64,000 bases of DNA from Candidatus Uhrbacteria bacterium (GTDB lineage Bacteria; Patescibacteriota; Patescibacteriia; UBA9934; GWF2-40-263), in the NCBI GenBank assembly GCA_037131775.1, contig JBAXQK010000002.1, positions 87,493-151,492 of the forward strand, read 5' to 3'. The position numbers and the translations under genes are program-made. Numbering within the stretch: the stretch's first letter is position 1; each line of letters opens with the position of its first letter. Of this stretch, positions 9,678 through 45,601 are shown piece by piece. Below the pieces are notes generated by a model. The model did no database searches, was not told the origin of the DNA, and worked only from the letters and a program-made list of their open reading frames with translations.

Positions 9678-9725
9678 AGCCATCTGGCTCTTTTTTCTTT
9701 GAACAAAAAAACCGCGGCCTTTCGG

Positions 9726-10202
9726 TCACGGAGAGCGCGGGGACAGACGGATGGCGGTTGCGACTTTTTCGCCATAGAGAACCTGGTCCTGCCGTTCGCG
9801 GAGATCGCGTTCTTGCGCCAGATGACGCTGATAGTCGTCTGGCAAACCGGTCATCAGGATCGCATCCCGACGCGCGTTCAGGCGATCCCCTTCCGCAAGC
9901 AGGCGCCGTCCCTCGTCCGACAGGAACGCCAGCCATGCGGCCATCGGCGCGGAGGCGGTATTGCGGACGTACTGGAATCCGAGAACGGCGATCGTCACGG
10001 CGCCGACGAACGGAATCGCGAGAAACGCCAGTGCCCACGTTCCCATCGCGATCCACACGACCGCATAGAGGACAAGTGCCGCGACGTTCGCGACGTCGAG
10101 CGCGACCCGCAGGCGCGACGGATACGCGACCATCGGGTATGGAATCTCCCGCGCGCACCGCGGCCGCCTGTGGCCGGGAGGGTCGCAGAACGCCTGGGTC
10201 AT
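9726..10202 (-). CDS. Hypothetical membrane protein (paralog 1 of a tandem pair)
   Basis: 158 aa, hydrophobic helices; N-terminus MTQAFCDPPGHRRP resembles the upstream paralog (LQDPPGHVRP). Confidence 0.5.
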   Translation of the reverse strand: MTQAFCDPPGHRRPRCAREIPYPMVAYPSRLRVALDVANVAALVLYAVVWIAMGTWALAFLAIPFVGAVTIAVLGFQYVRNTASAPMAAWLAFLSDEGRRLLAEGDRLNARRDAILMTGLPDDYQRHLAQERDLRERQDQVLYGEKVATAIRLSPRSP

Positions 10203-10774
10203 GGCGATGCCGCGAGCGACGCGTCGTGTGCGACGACCTCGCCGGCAAGGTGTTTGCCCTGGCGGCTGAGGAGATCCTCCTCGTCGAACAACGTCTTGTT
10301 CCAGGCTGCCAACAGGCTGGCCTCCAGCTCCAGGATCTGCTGCGGGTCCAGGGCAATCGCGAGCCTTCGAAACGCCGCGAGGCTGCGCTCCCCGTTCTCG
10401 ATCTCCCTTCGTCGCTCCGAGATCCTTACCCCCTCCCGCAGCAGGGCCCAGCCGACGGGCGTGCGGGACAGCAGGAGGATTTCCTTCGGCATCCAGATGA
10501 GGTCGCCGTTCCCGCCAAGAGTTGCCGACGGGCTCACGATTACCGCGTACAGCATCACGTTCCCGATCGTCGCCCAGAAGACAATCTCGACGACGCTGTC
10601 AAACGTCACGGAACCGGTCGCACGGTACTCCGAGCGTCCGATTGTGAGCACCATGATCGTCATGGCGGCGCACGCGATCTTCGCGGCGGTCAGACGGGCC
10701 TTGTACCAGGTCAGGCGTCGGCCGCACGCATACGGCCGAACGTGTCCTGGCGGGTCTTGCAGGGGAATCGACAT
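10199..10774 (-). CDS. Hypothetical membrane protein (paralog 2); ATGA overlap with downstream paralog
   Basis: 191 aa, TM helices, shared DPPGHxRP N-terminal motif; stop overlaps the start of 9726..10202. Confidence 0.5.
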   Translation of the reverse strand: MSIPLQDPPGHVRPYACGRRLTWYKARLTAAKIACAAMTIMVLTIGRSEYRATGSVTFDSVVEIVFWATIGNVMLYAVIVSPSATLGGNGDLIWMPKEILLLSRTPVGWALLREGVRISERRREIENGERSLAAFRRLAIALDPQQILELEASLLAAWNKTLFDEEDLLSRQGKHLAGEVVAHDASLAASP

Positions 10775-10857
10775 TGAGAACCTCCGCCGAGACCCTACCC
10801 GACATTGACGATCGCGTCCAGATCTGGTTCACTTCGGCTCGCCATACGAGGGCAATC

Positions 10858-11793
10858 ATGGATCTATCTTCCGCGACACCGCCTCCCACACCTCTTCGCA
10901 TTTCCGAAACCACCCGCGTCATACCATCGACAAGCCCCGTCACGAGCGTCGCGTTCGGACCTCGCGGTAACGTCGCGATGCTCACGGGATCGCGACTGAA
11001 GGAGTACGATGCCGATCGAACGGAAACGAGGATCGTCACGAACGACCTCGGAAACCGGACGTTCGGCTACGATGCCGGTACCGGGTCCCTCCGACTCGAT
11101 CCTCCCAAGGAGGGGCGGGCCGAGGCCGTCGTCGTCACGGACTCGGACGCGCGACGCCGGCTCTCCGCCGTCGGACTGCCGTTCGCGCGAATCCAGCAGG
11201 ATACGATCCGCCTCGGCAAGGACGGGCCGGAATACGTCGCGTGGACCGACTCCAGGACGGGCCCGCTCACCGGCACCGTGTTCTCCGGGCCCGTGCGCGT
11301 CATCCCGAGCGAGGTCGTCGTGCTCGCGGAATCCGACGTCGACGCGCGCGTGATCATGGAGGGAAGTGGCATTCACACGATCCTCCGGACTCCCGACGGC
11401 AGAACCGTGGTCCGGTGCGGGTCAGAGCCGTCCGAATTCCACATTCCTCCGGCCCCGGACCTTTCCACGTGGACGTCGGTCATCCGCACCCGACGGCACG
11501 CCCTCGTATCGGGAATCTACGGTCACATCACGGACCTCCGCCATCCCTGCCGCATCGCCGAGTCTCCCTGGAAGATCATCGGCGACCCGCACCGCCTTCC
11601 CGGAGGCGCGGCGACCGAGGCGCACAACGGCTCCCGGCGCACGCTCATCTGGCTCCACGAGGACGGCTTCGACTGCCTCCCCGCCACGAGCCCGCTCAAG
11701 AGCCTCGTCCGCACCGGCCCGCGCGAGCTCACCGGCTGGCACATGCGCGGCCTCCAGCTCGTCATCCGAACGTACGCGCTCCCCCGCGACTGA
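10858..11793 (+). CDS. Hypothetical protein
   Basis: ORF 10774..11793; composition includes W/Y/H/I unlike the overlapping Arg-rich antisense ORFs; start set at MDLSSATPPP, uncertain. Confidence 0.4.
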   Translation: MDLSSATPPPTPLRISETTRVIPSTSPVTSVAFGPRGNVAMLTGSRLKEYDADRTETRIVTNDLGNRTFGYDAGTGSLRLDPPKEGRAEAVVVTDSDARRRLSAVGLPFARIQQDTIRLGKDGPEYVAWTDSRTGPLTGTVFSGPVRVIPSEVVVLAESDVDARVIMEGSGIHTILRTPDGRTVVRCGSEPSEFHIPPAPDLSTWTSVIRTRRHALVSGIYGHITDLRHPCRIAESPWKIIGDPHRLPGGAATEAHNGSRRTLIWLHEDGFDCLPATSPLKSLVRTGPRELTGWHMRGLQLVIRTYALPRD

Positions 11794-25796: not shown

Positions 25797-26690
25797 ATGA
25801 GGAAGCCATGGAAAAAGCGGCTGCTCGTTCGAGCCTCCGCGTTCGTTCGCAAATGGAAGCAGTTGTTCCGTGAGACGGCGGAGATTCTCCGGCCTGTGGA
25901 CACGTTTGTCCTCGTGGTAACGCACGTCCTGTTCGTCTTCGCAGAGGACGGGCTCGCCCTGGCCGGATTCGCGACGTTCGGAAAGTTTCCCGCGGTCATC
26001 CAGCCGCGCGGCACCGCGCGCGCGACGATCGTCCTCGCACCGGGACTTCAGCAGACGCCGTTCTCCGCCTACCCGTTCGGATGGTTCCTCGCGAAGGCGT
26101 TCCGGTTCCGCGTCCTGCTCGTGCAAACGCCGCGGCAGGGCAACTACGAGACGTTTGAAGAGACGATGGAACGCAACGCGTGGATCCGCGACGGGGTCGG
26201 CGAAGGCCCGGTGATTGGCATCGGGTTCTCCAAGGGTGGCCAGGACCTGGCGTGGATCTTCTCCGCGCTGCTCTACGACGACCCGACGCTCGTCCGCCGC
26301 CTTGCCCTCGTGATGATGTGCACGCCGCTGCGAGGATCGAGGATGGCGAAGGTCGTCCATACCCGCGGCGCCCAGGCGTTGCTCCCGGACGCGCCCGAGA
26401 TCCAGCAGACGCTCCGCCTCGTGGAGGGGTTCGCCGAGCTTGGCATCCCGCTCAAGTTCTACTGCGCCGTGTGGGACCGCATCGTCCGCCGCTCCGACTC
26501 GCGCATCGCGAACGGACAGCGCTATCGCCCGCCGACGTTCCTCGAGCGCCTCCGCGGAATCCGGCGCGCTCAACCCTGGTACTGGTCCCAGACCCTCTGG
26601 TTCCAGTTCGGCCACACCGCCATCTACAACTGGATCGCCTGGATCCAAGTCGGCCGCTACGTTGCCAACGACCTCGTCCCGCGTTTGTAA
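25797..26690 (+). CDS. Alpha/beta hydrolase fold protein
   Basis: GIGFSKGGQD nucleophile elbow (GxSxG); start at MRKPWKKR. Confidence 0.55.
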   Translation: MRKPWKKRLLVRASAFVRKWKQLFRETAEILRPVDTFVLVVTHVLFVFAEDGLALAGFATFGKFPAVIQPRGTARATIVLAPGLQQTPFSAYPFGWFLAKAFRFRVLLVQTPRQGNYETFEETMERNAWIRDGVGEGPVIGIGFSKGGQDLAWIFSALLYDDPTLVRRLALVMMCTPLRGSRMAKVVHTRGAQALLPDAPEIQQTLRLVEGFAELGIPLKFYCAVWDRIVRRSDSRIANGQRYRPPTFLERLRGIRRAQPWYWSQTLWFQFGHTAIYNWIAWIQVGRYVANDLVPRL

Positions 26691-26819
26691 GACGCGGGAA
26701 TTTTTATTACACTCGAACGGATATGGAACGTCGCGGAGACAACCCAAACGACGATAAAAAAGAACGCCTGCGACGCCGGCGGCTGGAGGAGGCTGCCTCG
26801 GCGCAGGTCGTCGCAAACA

Positions 26820-26846
26820 AAGAACAGGAGCGTGCGCTCCTGTTCG
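26820..26846. terminator. Bidirectional hairpin terminator between convergent genes
   Basis: GAACAGGAGCG-TGCG-CGCTCCTGTTC, perfect 11-bp stem. Confidence 0.4.
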
Positions 26847-26849
26847 GCC

Positions 26850-27104
26850 TCATCCAGAAAACCCTTCCTCCCGAAGCCGCTCCGCCTTCCGCCCCTCCCC
26901 GCGATTATATCCTCCCGTTTTTCCGTCGGAACGGATGACCCGATGGCACGGAATCGTCGGATCGAAGTTCCTGCTCAATATCGTCCCCACCGCCCGGCAC
27001 GCCCCGGGCCTCCCCGCCGCGATCGCCACCTGCTTGTAGGTAAGCGTCTTGCCGCGGGGAATTTGTTTTACGATCGCGTAGACGTGTGAGGCGAAAGGGG
27101 TCAT
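26850..27104 (-). CDS. MGMT/ATL-family methylated-DNA-protein-cysteine methyltransferase DNA-binding domain protein
   Basis: PCHRVI active-site/recognition motif, about 85 aa; N-terminal extension in the ORF track is read-through of REP repeats. Confidence 0.65.
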   Translation of the reverse strand: MTPFASHVYAIVKQIPRGKTLTYKQVAIAAGRPGACRAVGTILSRNFDPTIPCHRVIRSDGKTGGYNRGEGRKAERLREEGFSG

Positions 27105-27111
27105 AGATATT

Positions 27112-27259
27112 CCCAGGGACTTTAGTCCCGTCCTCCGAGTCGCGACGTTCCCACGATCGGGACTAAAGTCCCTGGGAATACGAGACGCCACTAAAGTGGC
27201 TGGGAAAACGATTTCATAGGGACTTTAGTCCCGTGCGCTTCCCAGGGACTTTAGTCCCG
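27112..27259. repeat. REP array (5 copies/variants of CCCAGGGACTTTAGTCCCG) 3' of the RAYT gene
   Basis: Copies at 27112-27130 (+), 27158-27176 (-), 27188-27204 (variant), 27218-27233 (+), 27241-27259 (+); GGGAC/GTCCC arms form a hairpin. Confidence 0.8.
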
Positions 27260-27791
27260 CCGTGATCCGCGTCGGCAATGACTCAAAGAATTCCTTTTCT
27301 CCCAGCGACATCACTGACGAGATAACATCATCCGCATACTCCTTCCCCTCTCGTACGATCACATAGCGATACGACGAAAATGGCCAGTCGAATAATTCCT
27401 GAAGATCCGTCACGTCGCCATGCTTCAAAGGATTGCCAATGACATATCCACGAACGCGATCGAGCAACGATTCCTTCATCGGAACGAATACGTGATATTC
27501 ACCCCAAACCGGCGACGCGATGTCCACCTGCCGTTTGACCTGAAACGAAACGCCGCCGTTAATCCACTGCAACATCGTAGGGATTACGTCGCTCTTCCCA
27601 AAGCTTCCAAGAAAATGATAGTGGTCCTCCATGATTCCATAGTCGGGACACTCGACGCCGAATTTGACGAACGCTTCCTCGAGGCGAACGCGAAGAAGTT
27701 CGCGGAGGGCGAGATCCTTGAAGATCGGTCGGTGACGATCCGTCGGGACGGTGATGAAGTACCAGGAATCGAGGAGGAAGAAACGAGACAT
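27225..27791 (-). CDS. REP-associated tyrosine transposase (RAYT, IS200/IS605 Y1 family)
   Basis: YFITVPTDRHRP, HuH motif EDHYHFLG, C-terminal YVIGNPLKHGDVTDLQELFDWPFSSYRY (compare E. coli RAYT YIYINPVKHGWVKQVSDWPFSTFH); both gene ends overlap REP copies. Confidence 0.8.
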   Translation of the reverse strand: MSRFFLLDSWYFITVPTDRHRPIFKDLALRELLRVRLEEAFVKFGVECPDYGIMEDHYHFLGSFGKSDVIPTMLQWINGGVSFQVKRQVDIASPVWGEYHVFVPMKESLLDRVRGYVIGNPLKHGDVTDLQELFDWPFSSYRYVIVREGKEYADDVISSVMSLGEKEFFESLPTRITAGLKSLGSARD

Positions 27792-27908
27792 ACTCGACGG
27801 GACTAAAGTCCCTGGGAATTCTTGACGCCACTGAAGTGACTGGGAATTACGTTTACGCTCTGACAGGATTCACAGGGACTTTAGTCCCGTCGGGTTTCCC
27901 AGGGACTT
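27790..27908. repeat. REP array (4 copies) 5' of the RAYT gene, in direct orientation relative to the 3' array
   Basis: 27790-27808 (-), 27820-27836 (variant), 27865-27881 (+), 27890-27908 (+); unit order mirrors 27158-27259. Confidence 0.8.
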
Positions 27909-28243
27909 TAGTCCCGTTCGCTTGGAAGAAGAAACCGCGTCAGTTTCCACGCACACACCCTGCAGCTCGACACCGTCCGATACGCGATCTCCGACGCCCA
28001 TGCGAACGGCGGAACGCGGCGATACCACCAAAGCAATCGCCCGGGCGTCGACGTGGCCAGCAACCGAAATACCCCCTCCGCCCCGCGGCTCACCGTGCCG
28101 TCCGTCGCGACGAACTCGGACGACGGCCTCTTCTCCGCGAACGGGACGTACTCGACCGCCTCCCGCGTCGTCCTCTTCCACCGCTGCACCCATAGACGAC
28201 AAAACCGGCACGTCCCGTCGTAATAAAATCGAGGTCTCTCCAT
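27908..28243 (-). CDS. DCC-family thiol-disulfide oxidoreductase (DUF393)
   Basis: YYDGTCRFCRLWVQRW (YDGxCxxC motif), 111 aa. Confidence 0.7.
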   Translation of the reverse strand: MERPRFYYDGTCRFCRLWVQRWKRTTREAVEYVPFAEKRPSSEFVATDGTVSRGAEGVFRLLATSTPGRLLWWYRRVPPFAWASEIAYRTVSSCRVCAWKLTRFLLPSERD

Positions 28244-28289
28244 AGTTCGACAAACTCACTACCCGTACGTCTGCTATACTACCCCCGAT

Positions 28290-29528
28290 ATGAAACATCT
28301 CAAAGCATTCGTCCCGCTCCTCCTGGCGGTGTTCACCGACCTCATCGGCTTCGGTATCGCGCTTCCCGTCCTTCCGGGACTGTTCCTGAGCGCAAACGGA
28401 ATTCTGCCGATTGGCACGCCGTACGCGACGCGGACGATCATCCTCGGGTTCATCCTCGGCCTCTTCCCCCTCATCCAAATCTTCTCCGCCCCGGTCCTCG
28501 GCGCGCTCGCCGACCGGCACGGCCGCAAGCCGATCCTCCTGCTTTCGTTCGTCGGGACGCTCGTCGGATACCTGATGTTCGCCGCCGGAATCGTCACGCA
28601 GCAGCTGTGGCTCCTCGTTCTTGGTCGCGCCATCGACGGCGCCACGGGCGGAAACATCTCGGTCGCCTCCGCGGCCATCGCGGACCTGTCGACGGAGAAG
28701 ACGCGTGCGAAAAACTTCGGTCTCATCGGAATGGCGTTCGGGCTCGGATTCGTGATCGGGCCGTTCCTGGGTGGAAAGCTGTCCGATCCGGCGATCGTCT
28801 CCTGGTTCTCGTACGCCACGCCGTTCTGGTTCGCCGCGATCCTTTCCGTCGCGAACATCGCGCTGCTCGCGCTTTTCTTCTCGGAGACGCTCAAAACGAA
28901 GAGACCTACTCCGGTGACGATCATGACGGGAATCCGGAACATCCGCCTCGCGTTCACGATGCCCCGCGTCCGCCTGCTGTTTCTCGTCCAGTTCCTGCTG
29001 ACGCTGGGGTTCACCAGCTACACCTCCTACATGCAGGTGTACCTCATCGACCGGTTTCATATTTCCCAGAGCCAGATCGGCGACGTATTCGGGTTTATCG
29101 GCATCTGCATCGCCATCTCGCAGGGACTCGTCGCCCGCCCCGTCGCCGACCGCTTCTCTTCCGCCGCCGTCCTTCGAATCGCCCCCGTCGGCCTCGCCGC
29201 GACGCTCGCGCTCGTGCTCGTCCCGTCAGAGCTCAAGACGCTCTTCTTCGTCTTCCCGTTCATGGCGATCTTCCAGGGACTCGTCTCCACGAACGTCATG
29301 GCGCTCATCTCCGGGAGCGCCGACAAGGAATCGCAAGGCGAGATCCTCGGCCTCAACCAGTCCGTCGCCTCGTTCGCCCAGTTCCTCCCCGGCCTGTTCG
29401 GCGGCGCCATCGCGGCGATACACCCCGCTGGTCCGACGCTCGCCGGGGCGATCCTGACGCTTGTGGCATGGGTGGTGTTCGTCGTCGGATATCGAGAAAA
29501 GGACGCCGGGAAATTCCATGAGGCGTAA
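28290..29528 (+). CDS. MFS transporter (drug:H+ antiporter-like)
   Basis: 12 predicted TM helices; GALADRHGRKPIL (MFS motif A); antisense ORF 27870..29060 rejected. Confidence 0.85.
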   Translation: MKHLKAFVPLLLAVFTDLIGFGIALPVLPGLFLSANGILPIGTPYATRTIILGFILGLFPLIQIFSAPVLGALADRHGRKPILLLSFVGTLVGYLMFAAGIVTQQLWLLVLGRAIDGATGGNISVASAAIADLSTEKTRAKNFGLIGMAFGLGFVIGPFLGGKLSDPAIVSWFSYATPFWFAAILSVANIALLALFFSETLKTKRPTPVTIMTGIRNIRLAFTMPRVRLLFLVQFLLTLGFTSYTSYMQVYLIDRFHISQSQIGDVFGFIGICIAISQGLVARPVADRFSSAAVLRIAPVGLAATLALVLVPSELKTLFFVFPFMAIFQGLVSTNVMALISGSADKESQGEILGLNQSVASFAQFLPGLFGGAIAAIHPAGPTLAGAILTLVAWVVFVVGYREKDAGKFHEA

Positions 29529-39163: not shown

Positions 39164-39859
39164 CTATGCTCGCGTCGCCATAAACGTCGCGACGATGGCG
39201 GCGGTTTCGGCGCGGAGGATTCTTGGGCCGAGGTTGGCGGGGGTGAAGGTGGCGGCGCGCATGAGGTCGAGCTCGGCGGGGTCCCAGCCGCCCTCGGGGC
39301 CGATGAAGAGGCCCGTCGAGCCCGACGGGACTAAAGTCCCTGTGAAGTCAGGCGAGCCGGGCTCGAAGAGAAAGTTCGTCGCGTTCGATTTCGCGTGGAC
39401 GATGGCGAGTCTCAGCGACATAGGCTCGACAATCTCGGGAACGACGCCGCGGCCGCTTTGCTCGCAGGCTTCCGTCGCGATCTTTTGAAGGCGGTCGAGC
39501 TTCACGCCGAGCTTGATCGTGCGCGACGAGATGACGGGGATGATCGCGGCGACTCCGCACTCGACGGCCTTCTGGACGACGAGTTCGAAGTTCTCGCGCT
39601 TGAGCACGGCGCAGTAGAGCGTGACTTTGGTTGCGCTCTCGGTGTCGACGGCGCGACGGTCGATGATCTTCGCGACGATCGTCTTGTCGTCGGACACAAC
39701 CTGCACGGTCGCCTCCATCCCCTTCCCATCGCAGACAATGAACGGGTCTCCCGCCTCCATCCGAAACACGTTCCGAATCTGGTTCGTCGCCTCCCGATCG
39801 GAGATGACGAGTTCGTCGGCGGAGAGGTCGAGGTCGAGAATGAATCGGTGGAGGCGCAT
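39164..39859 (-). CDS. rsmE: 16S rRNA (uracil1498-N3)-methyltransferase RsmE, with an in-frame REP insertion
   Basis: MRLHRFILDL..., IGPEGGW motif; a 26-nt REP (TTCACAGGGACTTTAGTCCCGTCGGG, identical to 27862-27887) encodes DFTGTLVPSG between LFEPGS and IGPEGG. Confidence 0.8.
   Translation of the reverse strand: MRLHRFILDLDLSADELVISDREATNQIRNVFRMEAGDPFIVCDGKGMEATVQVVSDDKTIVAKIIDRRAVDTESATKVTLYCAVLKRENFELVVQKAVECGVAAIIPVISSRTIKLGVKLDRLQKIATEACEQSGRGVVPEIVEPMSLRLAIVHAKSNATNFLFEPGSPDFTGTLVPSGSTGLFIGPEGGWDPAELDLMRAATFTPANLGPRILRAETAAIVATFMATRA
39326..39342. repeat. REP copy embedded in rsmE coding sequence
   Basis: GGGACTAAAGTCCCTG on plus strand; same family as the RAYT-flanking REPs. Confidence 0.7.
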
Positions 39860-44644: not shown

Positions 44645-45601
44645 TCAAAACGGCAAGGGAGAGGGCTCGACCGTCGGTTCCCCGCCCGTAGAGGTCAGGA
44701 GGATGTCGCCGTCGAGGTCGGTGCGCTCGACGCGAATGTGGCGGTCGTCGAGGCGTTGGAGCGTCGCAGGATGCGGGTGGCCGTAGCTGTTATCGATGCC
44801 GTCGGAGATAATCGCGAACTCCGGGGTGACCGCGTCGAGGAACTCGGTCGACGACGAGGTGCGGCTCCCGTGGTGTCCGACCTTGAGGACGTCGACGTCG
44901 CCGACCTCGGGAAGGATGTCGTGCTCGACGTCGGCCGGCGCGTCGCCGGTGAGAAGGAGGGTCGTGTCGTGGTACGTGACGAGCATCACGACGGACGCCT
45001 CGTTCGGATCCTTCGGGTAGGTTCCGTCGATCGGCTTCGTCGGAGCGAGCACTTCGAGCGTCACGTCGCCGTACGCGAAGTGATCGCCCGCGACGAGATG
45101 CTTCGTCGGCGCATGCTCGGCGACGGTATCGGCTTCGAACGCGTCCATCTCCCCCGTGTGTGAAAGCGCACCACCGTCGTACACCGTGGCGACATCATAG
45201 CGCTCGAGGACGGAGACGAGGCCGGCGACATGGTCTTTGTGCGGATGCGTGAGCACGATCGCGTCGATGGACCGGTCCCACGGCTGCATCACCTGCCCAA
45301 GCTTCGAAAGCACTTCCTGCGACGGGCCGCCGTCGACGAGGATCTGATGGTGGTCGGGAGTCTCGATAAAGATGGAGTCGCCCTGGCCGACGTCGAAGAA
45401 CCAGACGCGAAGCTCGCCCGAAGAGACGAACGGCGCTGCGGGAACGGACGATACGACGGGCACCGGAACGTGCGACTCGCGGACGAAGAGGATCGTCGCA
45501 ATGACGAGCATCACGGTTGCGACGAGGAGATGCTCGACCTTGGAGCGGTGGCGAGAGAGGAGGAGGCGCGGGGTAGATTGACGTGATGTGCGGAGGGTCA
45601 T
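44645..45601 (-). CDS. ComEC/Rec2 C-terminal metallo-beta-lactamase domain protein (separate gene)
   Basis: HPHKDHVAGL (HxHxDH), VLKVGHHGSRTSSS; N-terminal TM; start possibly internal (MLVIATILFV). Confidence 0.8.
   Translation of the reverse strand: MTLRTSRQSTPRLLLSRHRSKVEHLLVATVMLVIATILFVRESHVPVPVVSSVPAAPFVSSGELRVWFFDVGQGDSIFIETPDHHQILVDGGPSQEVLSKLGQVMQPWDRSIDAIVLTHPHKDHVAGLVSVLERYDVATVYDGGALSHTGEMDAFEADTVAEHAPTKHLVAGDHFAYGDVTLEVLAPTKPIDGTYPKDPNEASVVMLVTYHDTTLLLTGDAPADVEHDILPEVGDVDVLKVGHHGSRTSSSTEFLDAVTPEFAIISDGIDNSYGHPHPATLQRLDDRHIRVERTDLDGDILLTSTGGEPTVEPSPLPF

Follow-up and report, generated by a model that had tools for sequence, protein, structure and literature searches.

The 64,000-nt stretch of a Candidatus Uhrbacteria genome analyzed here (contig JBAXQK010000002.1), referred to below as the window, contains a region of three minus-strand genes, which encode a DCC1-like protein, a 188-aa REP-associated tyrosine transposase (RAYT) and an MGMT-like protein. 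The RAYT gene, of which the window has one copy, is flanked by nine copies of a short hairpin of the repetitive extragenic palindromic (REP) kind, all within 810 bp. We interpret this locus as a REPtron, that is, a chromosomally fixed RAYT gene lying between clusters of its cognate hairpins, and put the probability of this reading at roughly 85%. The gene and its repeats are listed here; the strand given for a REP is the one that reads 5'-TTCNNA-stem-TTTA-stem.

27225-27791, minus strand: RAYT / TnpAREP-like HUH-Y1 nuclease gene, 188 aa; intact open reading frame with Pfam, NCBIfam and fold matches
27110-27130, plus strand: REP type A (foot TTCCCA, stem GGGAC, loop TTTA, stem GTCCC, then G), lying 6 nt before the start codon of the MGMT-like gene
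27158-27178, minus strand: REP type A that forms the outer arm of the downstream composite unit
27186-27206, minus strand: REP type B (stem GCCAC/GTGGC, loop and foot as in A), a compensatory variant of A
27213-27233, plus strand: REP type A whose foot is TTCATA; the RAYT stop codon at 27225-27227 comes from its loop
27239-27259, plus strand: REP type A within the 3' end of the RAYT open reading frame, read as ...GLKSLG...
27798-27818, minus strand: REP type A that forms the outer arm of the upstream composite unit and lies 6 nt before the RAYT ATG
27826-27846, minus strand: REP type B with one mismatch in its stem (GCCAC TGAA GTGAC)
27869-27889, plus strand: REP type A with foot TTCACA
27896-27916, plus strand: REP type A; its loop gives the DCC1-like stop codon at 27908-27910
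27158-27259, no strand: downstream composite unit (A, B, A, A), one nested long hairpin as single-stranded DNA; dG -37.3 kcal/mol, z -9.3
27798-27916, no strand: upstream composite unit, a nested long hairpin as single-stranded DNA; dG -38.6 kcal/mol, z -8.9

The initial annotation had recognized the 188-aa protein as a RAYT from the motifs EDHYHFLG and NPLKHG...DWPFSSY. Both motifs are present in the open reading frame (ORF) at 27225-27791 (minus strand), and the identification was supported by matches to Y1_Tnp, REP_Tyr_transpos and 4er8 in profile and fold comparisons. The Pfam family Y1_Tnp was passed marginally, at 24.4 bits against a cutoff of 23. The single NCBIfam match was REP_Tyr_transpos (NF047646; E=2e-16, 60.2 bits), and no IS200 model was matched. 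A search of the PDB with the single sequence gave only E=0.42; the family profile aligned over its full length with 4er8, the structure of TnpAREP, and also with the ISDra2 and IS608 transposases. The AlphaFold2 model had a mean predicted confidence (pLDDT) of 88.3, with disorder confined to the REP-encoded tail, residues 175-188. When this model was compared with known structures using Foldseek, the top match was 4er8_A (E=4e-8, TM 0.68, 150 aligned columns), the runner-up was ISDra2 (6.5e-6), and all of the IS200/IS605 structures ranked behind 4er8.

Residue conservation was examined in an alignment of 19 homologs with 36-66% identity, in which H57, H59, Y116, N120, K123 and H124 were invariant. 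The HUH motif is H57-Y58-H59, corresponding to H59-M60-H61 in E. coli, and HMMER aligned Y116 to E. coli Y115. P121 follows N120, giving a Y-x-x-x-N-P motif with the catalytic Y116. In class 2 TnpAY1 proteins the catalytic Tyr is on helix alphaD, and the Asn and His found at +4 and +8 from it are metal ligands. The active site of E. coli TnpAREP is made up of H59/H61, Y115, N119, H123 and E161 (PMC3479197), and because the invariant residues align with these at equal spacing, the set of His, His, Tyr, Asn (+4) and His (+8) is fully preserved. In a comparison made at the level of motifs, DHYH, WGE, YVIGNP and WPFSS fit class 2 TnpAY1 (TnpAREP-like) as defined by Quentin et al. 2018 (PMC6006769), the class 1 tyrosine motif Y[IV]ENQ was not matched, and no published subclass signature was matched exactly. 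Judged from its sequence and its modeled structure, the protein is a RAYT, an HUH-Y1 nuclease of single-stranded DNA. It is a divergent relative of REP_Tyr_transpos rather than a curated equivalog, and represents a divergent RAYT subfamily encoded by a transposase gene of the domesticated type.

The repeat is strongly overrepresented in the window. The core GGGACTTTAGTCCC was found at 8 sites, where shuffled sequences gave an expectation of 0.29 strand matches, and a general REP model (perfect 5-bp stem, TRAA loop and TNNGAA tail) identified 9 sites, compared with 0 in 50 shuffles. With mismatches allowed there are ten copies, nine at 27110-27916 and the tenth at 39326-39346. The initial annotation had described arrays of a repeat and a variant of it on both sides of the gene, and the nine mapped copies are indeed of two types, which share their loop and foot. 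Type A has the stem GGGAC/GTCCC; type B, with GCCAC/GTGGC, differs from it by two compensatory changes. Five of the seven flanking A copies match the 21-nt consensus exactly. The repeat is not, as had been proposed, a 19-bp palindrome: only the inner 14 nt are palindromic, and the CCCA is part of a conserved, unpaired 5' foot. The whole element is 5'-TTCNNA, a 5-bp stem, TTTA, the other arm of the stem and GTC-3', about 23 nt in length (21-23 nt). This outline came from a hairpin search that placed no constraint on the flanks, in which 161 A and 70 B copies had the 5' TTC..A at 96-100% and a 3' flank with G at 95-100%, T at 91-99% and C at 71-72%. A perfect 5-bp stem was present in 254 of the 284 sites with foot and loop, and these stems comprised 12 different sequences. 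Comparison of the sequences indicates that the hairpin structure is maintained by compensatory change.

The composite units at 27158-27259 and 27798-27916 are direct repeats, with four elements in one order, and the central spacer of the upstream unit is 16 nt longer than that of the downstream unit. The initial annotation was right about the direct arrangement and nearly so about the first unit (27156-27260); the second, given as 27790-27909, was misplaced. As suggested there, structure prediction was applied to the hairpins, and as single-stranded DNA the composite units have folding energies between -37 and -39 kcal/mol (z about -9). The fold is in each case a nested hairpin, so that each unit is an inverted doublet resembling the REP doublet-forming hairpins (REPINs), with a second doublet nested inside. 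An Rfam scan of 26000-29000 at E<=1 returned sub-threshold miRNA-hairpin noise alone.

Gene and repeat were found together at most of the related loci examined. A profile search identified 275 relatives of the protein, about 55 of them close, and the named close relatives were nearly all from Patescibacteria. A and B hairpins were present on both sides of the gene at eight of the nine loci examined. At the locus L070 (66% identity) the two types alternate on both sides, and L086, L088, L089, L091, L092, L093 and L094 (37-63% identity) have two-type arrays on both sides. The flanks are near-identical direct repeats at L086, L088, L089 and L091, and at L092 there are B/A doublets that match on both sides. 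Most loci have GCCAC as their B stem. In the A stem the two arms change together from locus to locus (GGGAC, CCGAC/GTCGG, GCGAA/TTCGC, GGGGC/GCCCC), and loop and foot are constant.

L092 and L094 do not belong to the Candidate Phyla Radiation (CPR); they contain sucCD, cytochromes and large sensor kinases. The L094 protein (P0021) is labeled Zixiibacteriota by NCBI, and L092 is syntenic with L094. In both, the RAYT (42-43% identity) is found at a conserved sucCD / radical-SAM position (9700-10900), flanked by doublets of the B hairpin, mostly with the GCCAC stem, and a CCGAC/GTCGG partner. The RAYT family in these Zixibacteria-like contigs is either very old or has crossed phyla.

To measure dispersal, species-representative genomes were scanned with the exact 21-mer. 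The initial annotation had made its reading depend on enrichment of the repeat elsewhere, and such enrichment was found: there were 83 stretches with the exact 21-mer in 8 metagenome-assembled genomes (MAGs), with up to 52 copies in one of them. Whole-MAG exact counts were 52, 21, 14, 8 and 8 in the five main MAGs, and three further MAGs had one or two. The GC content of the fetched chunks was 47-65% in the five main MAGs and about 40% in two of the MAGs with one or two copies. The richest MAG, CAYYFM, accounts for the 52 exact copies and has at least 110 by the general model in its fetched parts; the MAGs of the closest relatives have 8-14 exact copies each. The evidence for genome-wide enrichment is taken from these related genomes because the window has a single copy away from the locus. 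Inverted doublets made up 54 of the 125 REP clusters from all loci.

The spacers between the arms of some doublets contain tandem expansions of a piece of about 23 nt, consisting of the tail and a partial hairpin (L017 2877-2967 compared with L067, and L055 4095-4195 compared with L063), and the copy number of this piece differs among related genomes. Three of the MAGs, CAYYFM01, CAYRYG01 and CAZDDW01, are titled 'uncultured Gammaproteobacteria'. CAYYFM aligns with the window from murA to the RAYT gene with 65-72% nucleotide identity, and CAYRYG aligns over rsmE with about 70%; on the basis of these alignments, the record titles of CAYYFM and CAYRYG look wrong.

The gene, unlike the hairpins, keeps a fixed position. 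At L070 the order DCC1-like / RAYT / MGMT-like is conserved, and each of the three proteins is 62-69% identical to its counterpart in the window; synteny from murA to the RAYT gene with a related MAG was established by nucleotide alignment. Because the order is kept and all three proteins have diverged to this same degree, the RAYT gene has been inherited in place, diverging along with its neighbors. A tblastn search of the RAYT protein against plasmid and phage collections gave no match, and no tnpB adjoins the gene, its neighbors being the MGMT-like and DCC1-like genes. The RAYT gene does not behave as an insertion sequence.

The only copy in the window outside of the RAYT locus is inside a gene.

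39326-39346, minus strand: dispersed REP type A, in frame within rsmE, peptide DFTGTLVPSG
39164-39859, minus strand: rsmE (16S rRNA methyltransferase), host of the dispersed REP; the Pfam match spans the insert

A complete B+A doublet was found at the rsmE site in three other species. The window keeps half of it, and the closest relative has a decayed copy. The insertion is old, since three other species share the site and the copy of the closest relative has decayed. The rsmE gene of L073 has a second doublet further along, with the stems GCCCC and GGGCC.

This location is common. The REPs are not limited to extragenic DNA: many copies are within genes, and 50 of the 125 REP clusters are in frames with no stop for 60 codons or more in either direction. 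Pfam families were identified in 24 of the 30 REP-bearing ORFs tested, and in most cases the match includes residues before and after the insert. The genes include those for NAD-dependent DNA ligase (LigA), DNA polymerase I, DnaX, HolA, HolB and RadA, as well as ComEC-like, ComF-like and TatD (two doublets) proteins, two class I tRNA synthetases, and several methyltransferases and glycosyltransferases. The REPs add 6-46 residues to essential proteins. The in-frame inserts are concentrated in genes for replication, repair and translation (loci L003-L085, e.g. L004, L021, L030, L038, L045, L049 and L077).

Of the element's six reading frames, two put a stop codon in the loop and the other four are open; because of these open frames, dispersed copies tolerate coding sequence and often occupy it. 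The register F-x-G-T-L-V-P or G-T-K-V-P-x-N was used 57 times, compared with 17 for the other two open frames. There were 39 open frames of at least 100 codons that end on a REP-loop stop, some of which are spurious antisense ORFs. Among the 39 are the genes for LigA (L004) and valyl-tRNA synthetase (L045), and the RAYT and DCC1-like genes of the window are among the genuine ones. A comparison of filled and empty sites yielded one clean case, an 18-nt insert in L006 relative to L013 within an alignment of 66% identity, and a single case is not enough to derive a target site from. In L037 the ComEC-like gene has a perfect in-frame A/A doublet (1343-1389), and the corresponding stretch of the window, at about 45420-45480, is of near-equal length with scattered matches. 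From this alignment, the window's stretch is possibly a decayed relic of the insertion seen in L037.

In-frame intragenic REPs have been documented in Opitutus terrae, Rickettsia and other bacteria, in similar kinds of genes (PMC3733652; PMC6006769). Intragenic insertion as such is thus already known, although its frequency here is unusually high.

The genes on either side of the RAYT gene were identified as follows.

26850-27104, minus strand: MGMT C-terminal-domain gene, 84 aa; Pfam PF01035, 1.8e-28, PCHR motif present
27908-28243, minus strand: DCC1-like thiol-disulfide oxidoreductase gene; Pfam PF04134, 1.5e-9

Both neighbors had been named in the initial annotation, and the Pfam matches that adjoin the RAYT gene agree with it. 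So do the effects of the REPs on gene calls. The longer form of the MGMT-like ORF (113 aa, reaching 27191) is a false N-terminal extension made of REP sequence, the true start being at 27104, and the plus-strand ORF at 27836-28195, also suspected of being spurious, starts within the REP array and runs antisense to the Pfam-supported DCC1-like gene. The claim that REPs overlap both ends of the RAYT gene was correct for the 3' end, where the final 12 or so codons and the TAA stop are REP sequence, and incorrect for the 5' end, where the nearest REP begins 6 nt upstream of the ATG and there is no overlap. The TAA of the REP loop serves as the stop codon of both the RAYT gene (27225-27227) and the DCC1-like gene (27908-27910), in the frame ...R-D-stop.

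The MGMT-like gene consists of the C-terminal DNA-binding and active-site domain alone, without the N-terminal domain. A promoter-like site precedes the DCC1-like gene (28303-28276, minus strand), and the MGMT-like gene is followed by a terminator-like hairpin (26845-26822, minus strand). Both are consensus matches at a level not above shuffle expectation, and the promoter and terminator scan gave nothing above that expectation. It is possible that the three genes are transcribed together, as a unit that includes both REP clusters.

The system can be compared with several that are known. In the E. coli K-12 REPtron (tnpAREP/rayT, with bacterial interspersed mosaic elements of Y and Z2 REPs), as here, an HUH-Y1 gene (single-copy in E. 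coli, present once in the window) lies between inverted pairs of two related types of REP (PMC6006769), the active-site residues and their spacing are the same, and the REPs have a conserved, unpaired 5' foot adjoining the stem; its protein is also the closest solved fold (4ER8). The Uhrbacteria system differs in its large intragenic share and its CPR host, and in the features of protein and hairpin considered below. In Pseudomonas and Enterobacteria there are REPIN-RAYT systems (Bertels & Rainey; RAYT groups 2 and 3) that are alike in that the RAYT, a single-copy gene there and present once in the window here, is vertically inherited, and in that inverted REP doublets flank the gene, fold into long hairpins and are dispersed in the genome. 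The copy numbers here are modest in comparison (8-52 exact per MAG, and more than 100 by the general model in the fetched chunks of one MAG), the doublets mix two stem types, and the elements are not confined to extragenic space.

The intragenic REPs of Opitutus terrae and others and the Rickettsia palindromic elements (RPEs) (Di Nocera 2013, PMC3733652) resemble the Uhrbacteria family in being in-frame inserts in functional genes, as singles or dimers, and in the classes of their host genes, which are DNA ligase, Pol I, tRNA synthetases and repair genes. The Uhrbacteria family differs in that it has neither the GTAG nor the CGTC tag and in that a cognate transposase gene is present, whereas the CGTC REPs, RPE-4 and RPE-6 included, apparently have no dedicated transposase (PMC3733652).

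Several findings weigh against the identification of the locus as a REPtron. The protein is only 17% identical to the solved TnpAREP of E. coli, and its 60.2 bits fall short of the NF047646 equivalog cutoff of 80 bits. The hairpin does not have the canonical foot, GT[AG]G: its foot is TTCNNA with a 3' GTC where E. coli has GTAG; atypical feet are known in subclasses 2.6 and 3 (PMC6006769). It is also far shorter than the E. coli REPs, with a perfect 5-bp stem and a 4-nt loop in place of a long, bulged stem. No A or B hairpins were found at the distant homolog locus L090 (36% identity). The fetched pieces of the REP-bearing MAGs contained only one RAYT homolog, that of L070, and those of four MAGs contained none, which could reflect either loss of the gene or assembly breaks at repeat arrays. 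Many of the RAYT homologs were on contigs of 1-2 kb that end in REP arrays. This suggests that the arrays break metagenome assemblies, so that RAYT loci are often missing from bins, and could explain the four MAGs with REPs and no RAYT gene. Finally, within the 64 kb there is one copy away from the RAYT locus, and this sole dispersed copy, being old, partly decayed and common to other species, does not show recent activity in this genome.

Alternative explanations were considered for the association of gene and hairpins. One is that this is an autonomous insertion sequence of the IS200/IS605 type, with the hairpins as its left and right ends and the gene mobile along with them. The system does share with IS608 and ISDra2 the HUH-Y1 fold and chemistry, and their TnpA structures were significant fold matches. 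The Pfam family is even named 'Transposase IS200 like', and the hairpins on both sides of the gene form same-strand direct repeats, as do IS200/IS605 ends. However, the gene is single-copy in the window and does not behave as a mobile unit. It has a fixed position with the same neighbors in a species whose orthologs are 62-69% identical, its tyrosine motif is that of class 2 (YVIGNP) and not of class 1 (Y[IV]ENQ), and there is no adjoining tnpB. Most homolog clusters were found on just 1-3 contigs, and none on plasmids or phages. Furthermore, the hairpins far outnumber the gene and occur singly, as doublets and within genes. An insertion sequence is thus very improbable. It is nearly as improbable that the repeats have nothing to do with the RAYT and are host regulatory hairpins (terminators or mRNA stabilizers), or a selected peptide motif, clustering here by chance. 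REP clusters do occupy both spacers of a possible three-gene transcription unit, many copies abut the 3' ends of genes and supply their stop codons, and the major frames give a recurrent peptide, GT[LK]VP. Against this, the same hairpin types flank RAYT homologs in eight independent loci with unrelated neighbors, another phylum included. Copies occupy either orientation and four different reading frames, some lie in intergenic DNA, it is the DNA and not the peptide that is conserved (foot 96-100%), and there was no match to an Rfam family. The terminator reading in particular was dropped because no T-runs follow the REP hairpins in the window.

The more serious alternative concerns activity. 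The gene and its hairpins may be a fossil system, a vertically inherited remnant in which the REPs are immobile and the protein is kept for some other purpose or is being lost; we consider this possible, though doubtful. The single REP outside of the locus in 64 kb would fit it, as would the rsmE doublet, complete in three species, reduced to half in the window and degraded in the closest relative, the ComEC-like site, where the perfect doublet of L037 is unrecognizable in the window, and the count of just 8-14 exact copies in the closest MAGs. On the other hand, the ORF is full length with its catalytic residues intact and invariant, the nine flanking copies are near-perfect, and more than 100 copies are present in the related genome CAYYFM, which shares the locus. 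Perfect copies are also found across genomes of 40-65% GC, which argues for continued renewal. The case for a REPtron is carried by the family and fold of the protein, its conserved catalytic residues, the anatomy of the repeat, the association of gene and repeat at eight loci, the dispersal of the repeat and the fixed position of the locus. Whether mobilization is still active in this particular genome is a separate matter, on which we consider the chances even. Since the 64 kb have a single, old dispersed copy and the closest MAGs have 8-14, activity here may be low or extinct, with the near-perfect flanking copies and the intact-looking enzyme as a counterweight.

For a REPtron of this kind, a mechanism can be proposed by analogy with E. 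coli TnpAREP, from which the catalysis, the choice of strand and the site of cleavage are all extrapolated. The RAYT protein would bind the REP hairpin on single-stranded DNA and read the unpaired foot as a guide. Tyr116 would then serve to cut and rejoin the strand, and H57, H59, N120 and H124 would hold a metal ion. In this way REP units or doublets would be copied to new sites while the RAYT gene itself remained stationary. The RAYT probably copies the hairpins that flank it.

Most work on REP-RAYT systems has dealt with Proteobacteria, and additional subclasses are known from Cyanobacteria and Bacteroidetes. The initial annotation regarded a CPR host as noteworthy. Full-text searches of the available library found no literature linking RAYTs or REPINs with Patescibacteria, but several homologs from Patescibacteria have already been automatically annotated as 'RayT' by the Joint Genome Institute (JGI), and the taxon is less surprising than was implied for that reason. 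This is a known kind of system. This member of it is marked by a divergent RAYT, a very short REP without a GTAG foot, CPR and Zixibacteria-like hosts and a high intragenic share. The system is complete, with enzyme, cognate hairpins, dispersal and a fixed gene position, in ultra-small CPR bacteria, and an identical 21-mer spans genomes of 40-65% GC.

There are also practical consequences. The REPs create false N-terminal extensions and read-through ORFs, they provide the genuine stop codons of some genes, and metagenome assemblies are probably interrupted by them at the RAYT locus. These extensions, stops, inserts and assembly breaks are reasons for annotators of CPR genomes to be aware of the element. 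Since the element is 23 nt and the enzyme 188 aa long, the system is also a compact one in which to study how RAYTs choose and move REPs.

The genomes of CPR hosts are expected to be small and gene-dense, as are those of Rickettsia. We tentatively suggest, as an idea that may well not hold, that the REP of this lineage is adapted to live inside genes: four of its six frames are open, it encodes a Gly-Thr-(Leu/Lys)-Val-Pro loop in either orientation when in the preferred register, and it would be a recurrent source of in-frame peptides and new stops, with the near-constant B hairpin, found in Patescibacteria as well as Zixibacteria-like contigs, as the true recognition site and the variable A as its partner. 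If this were true, a RAYT-driven population of REPs would persist within the housekeeping genes of small, gene-dense CPR genomes.

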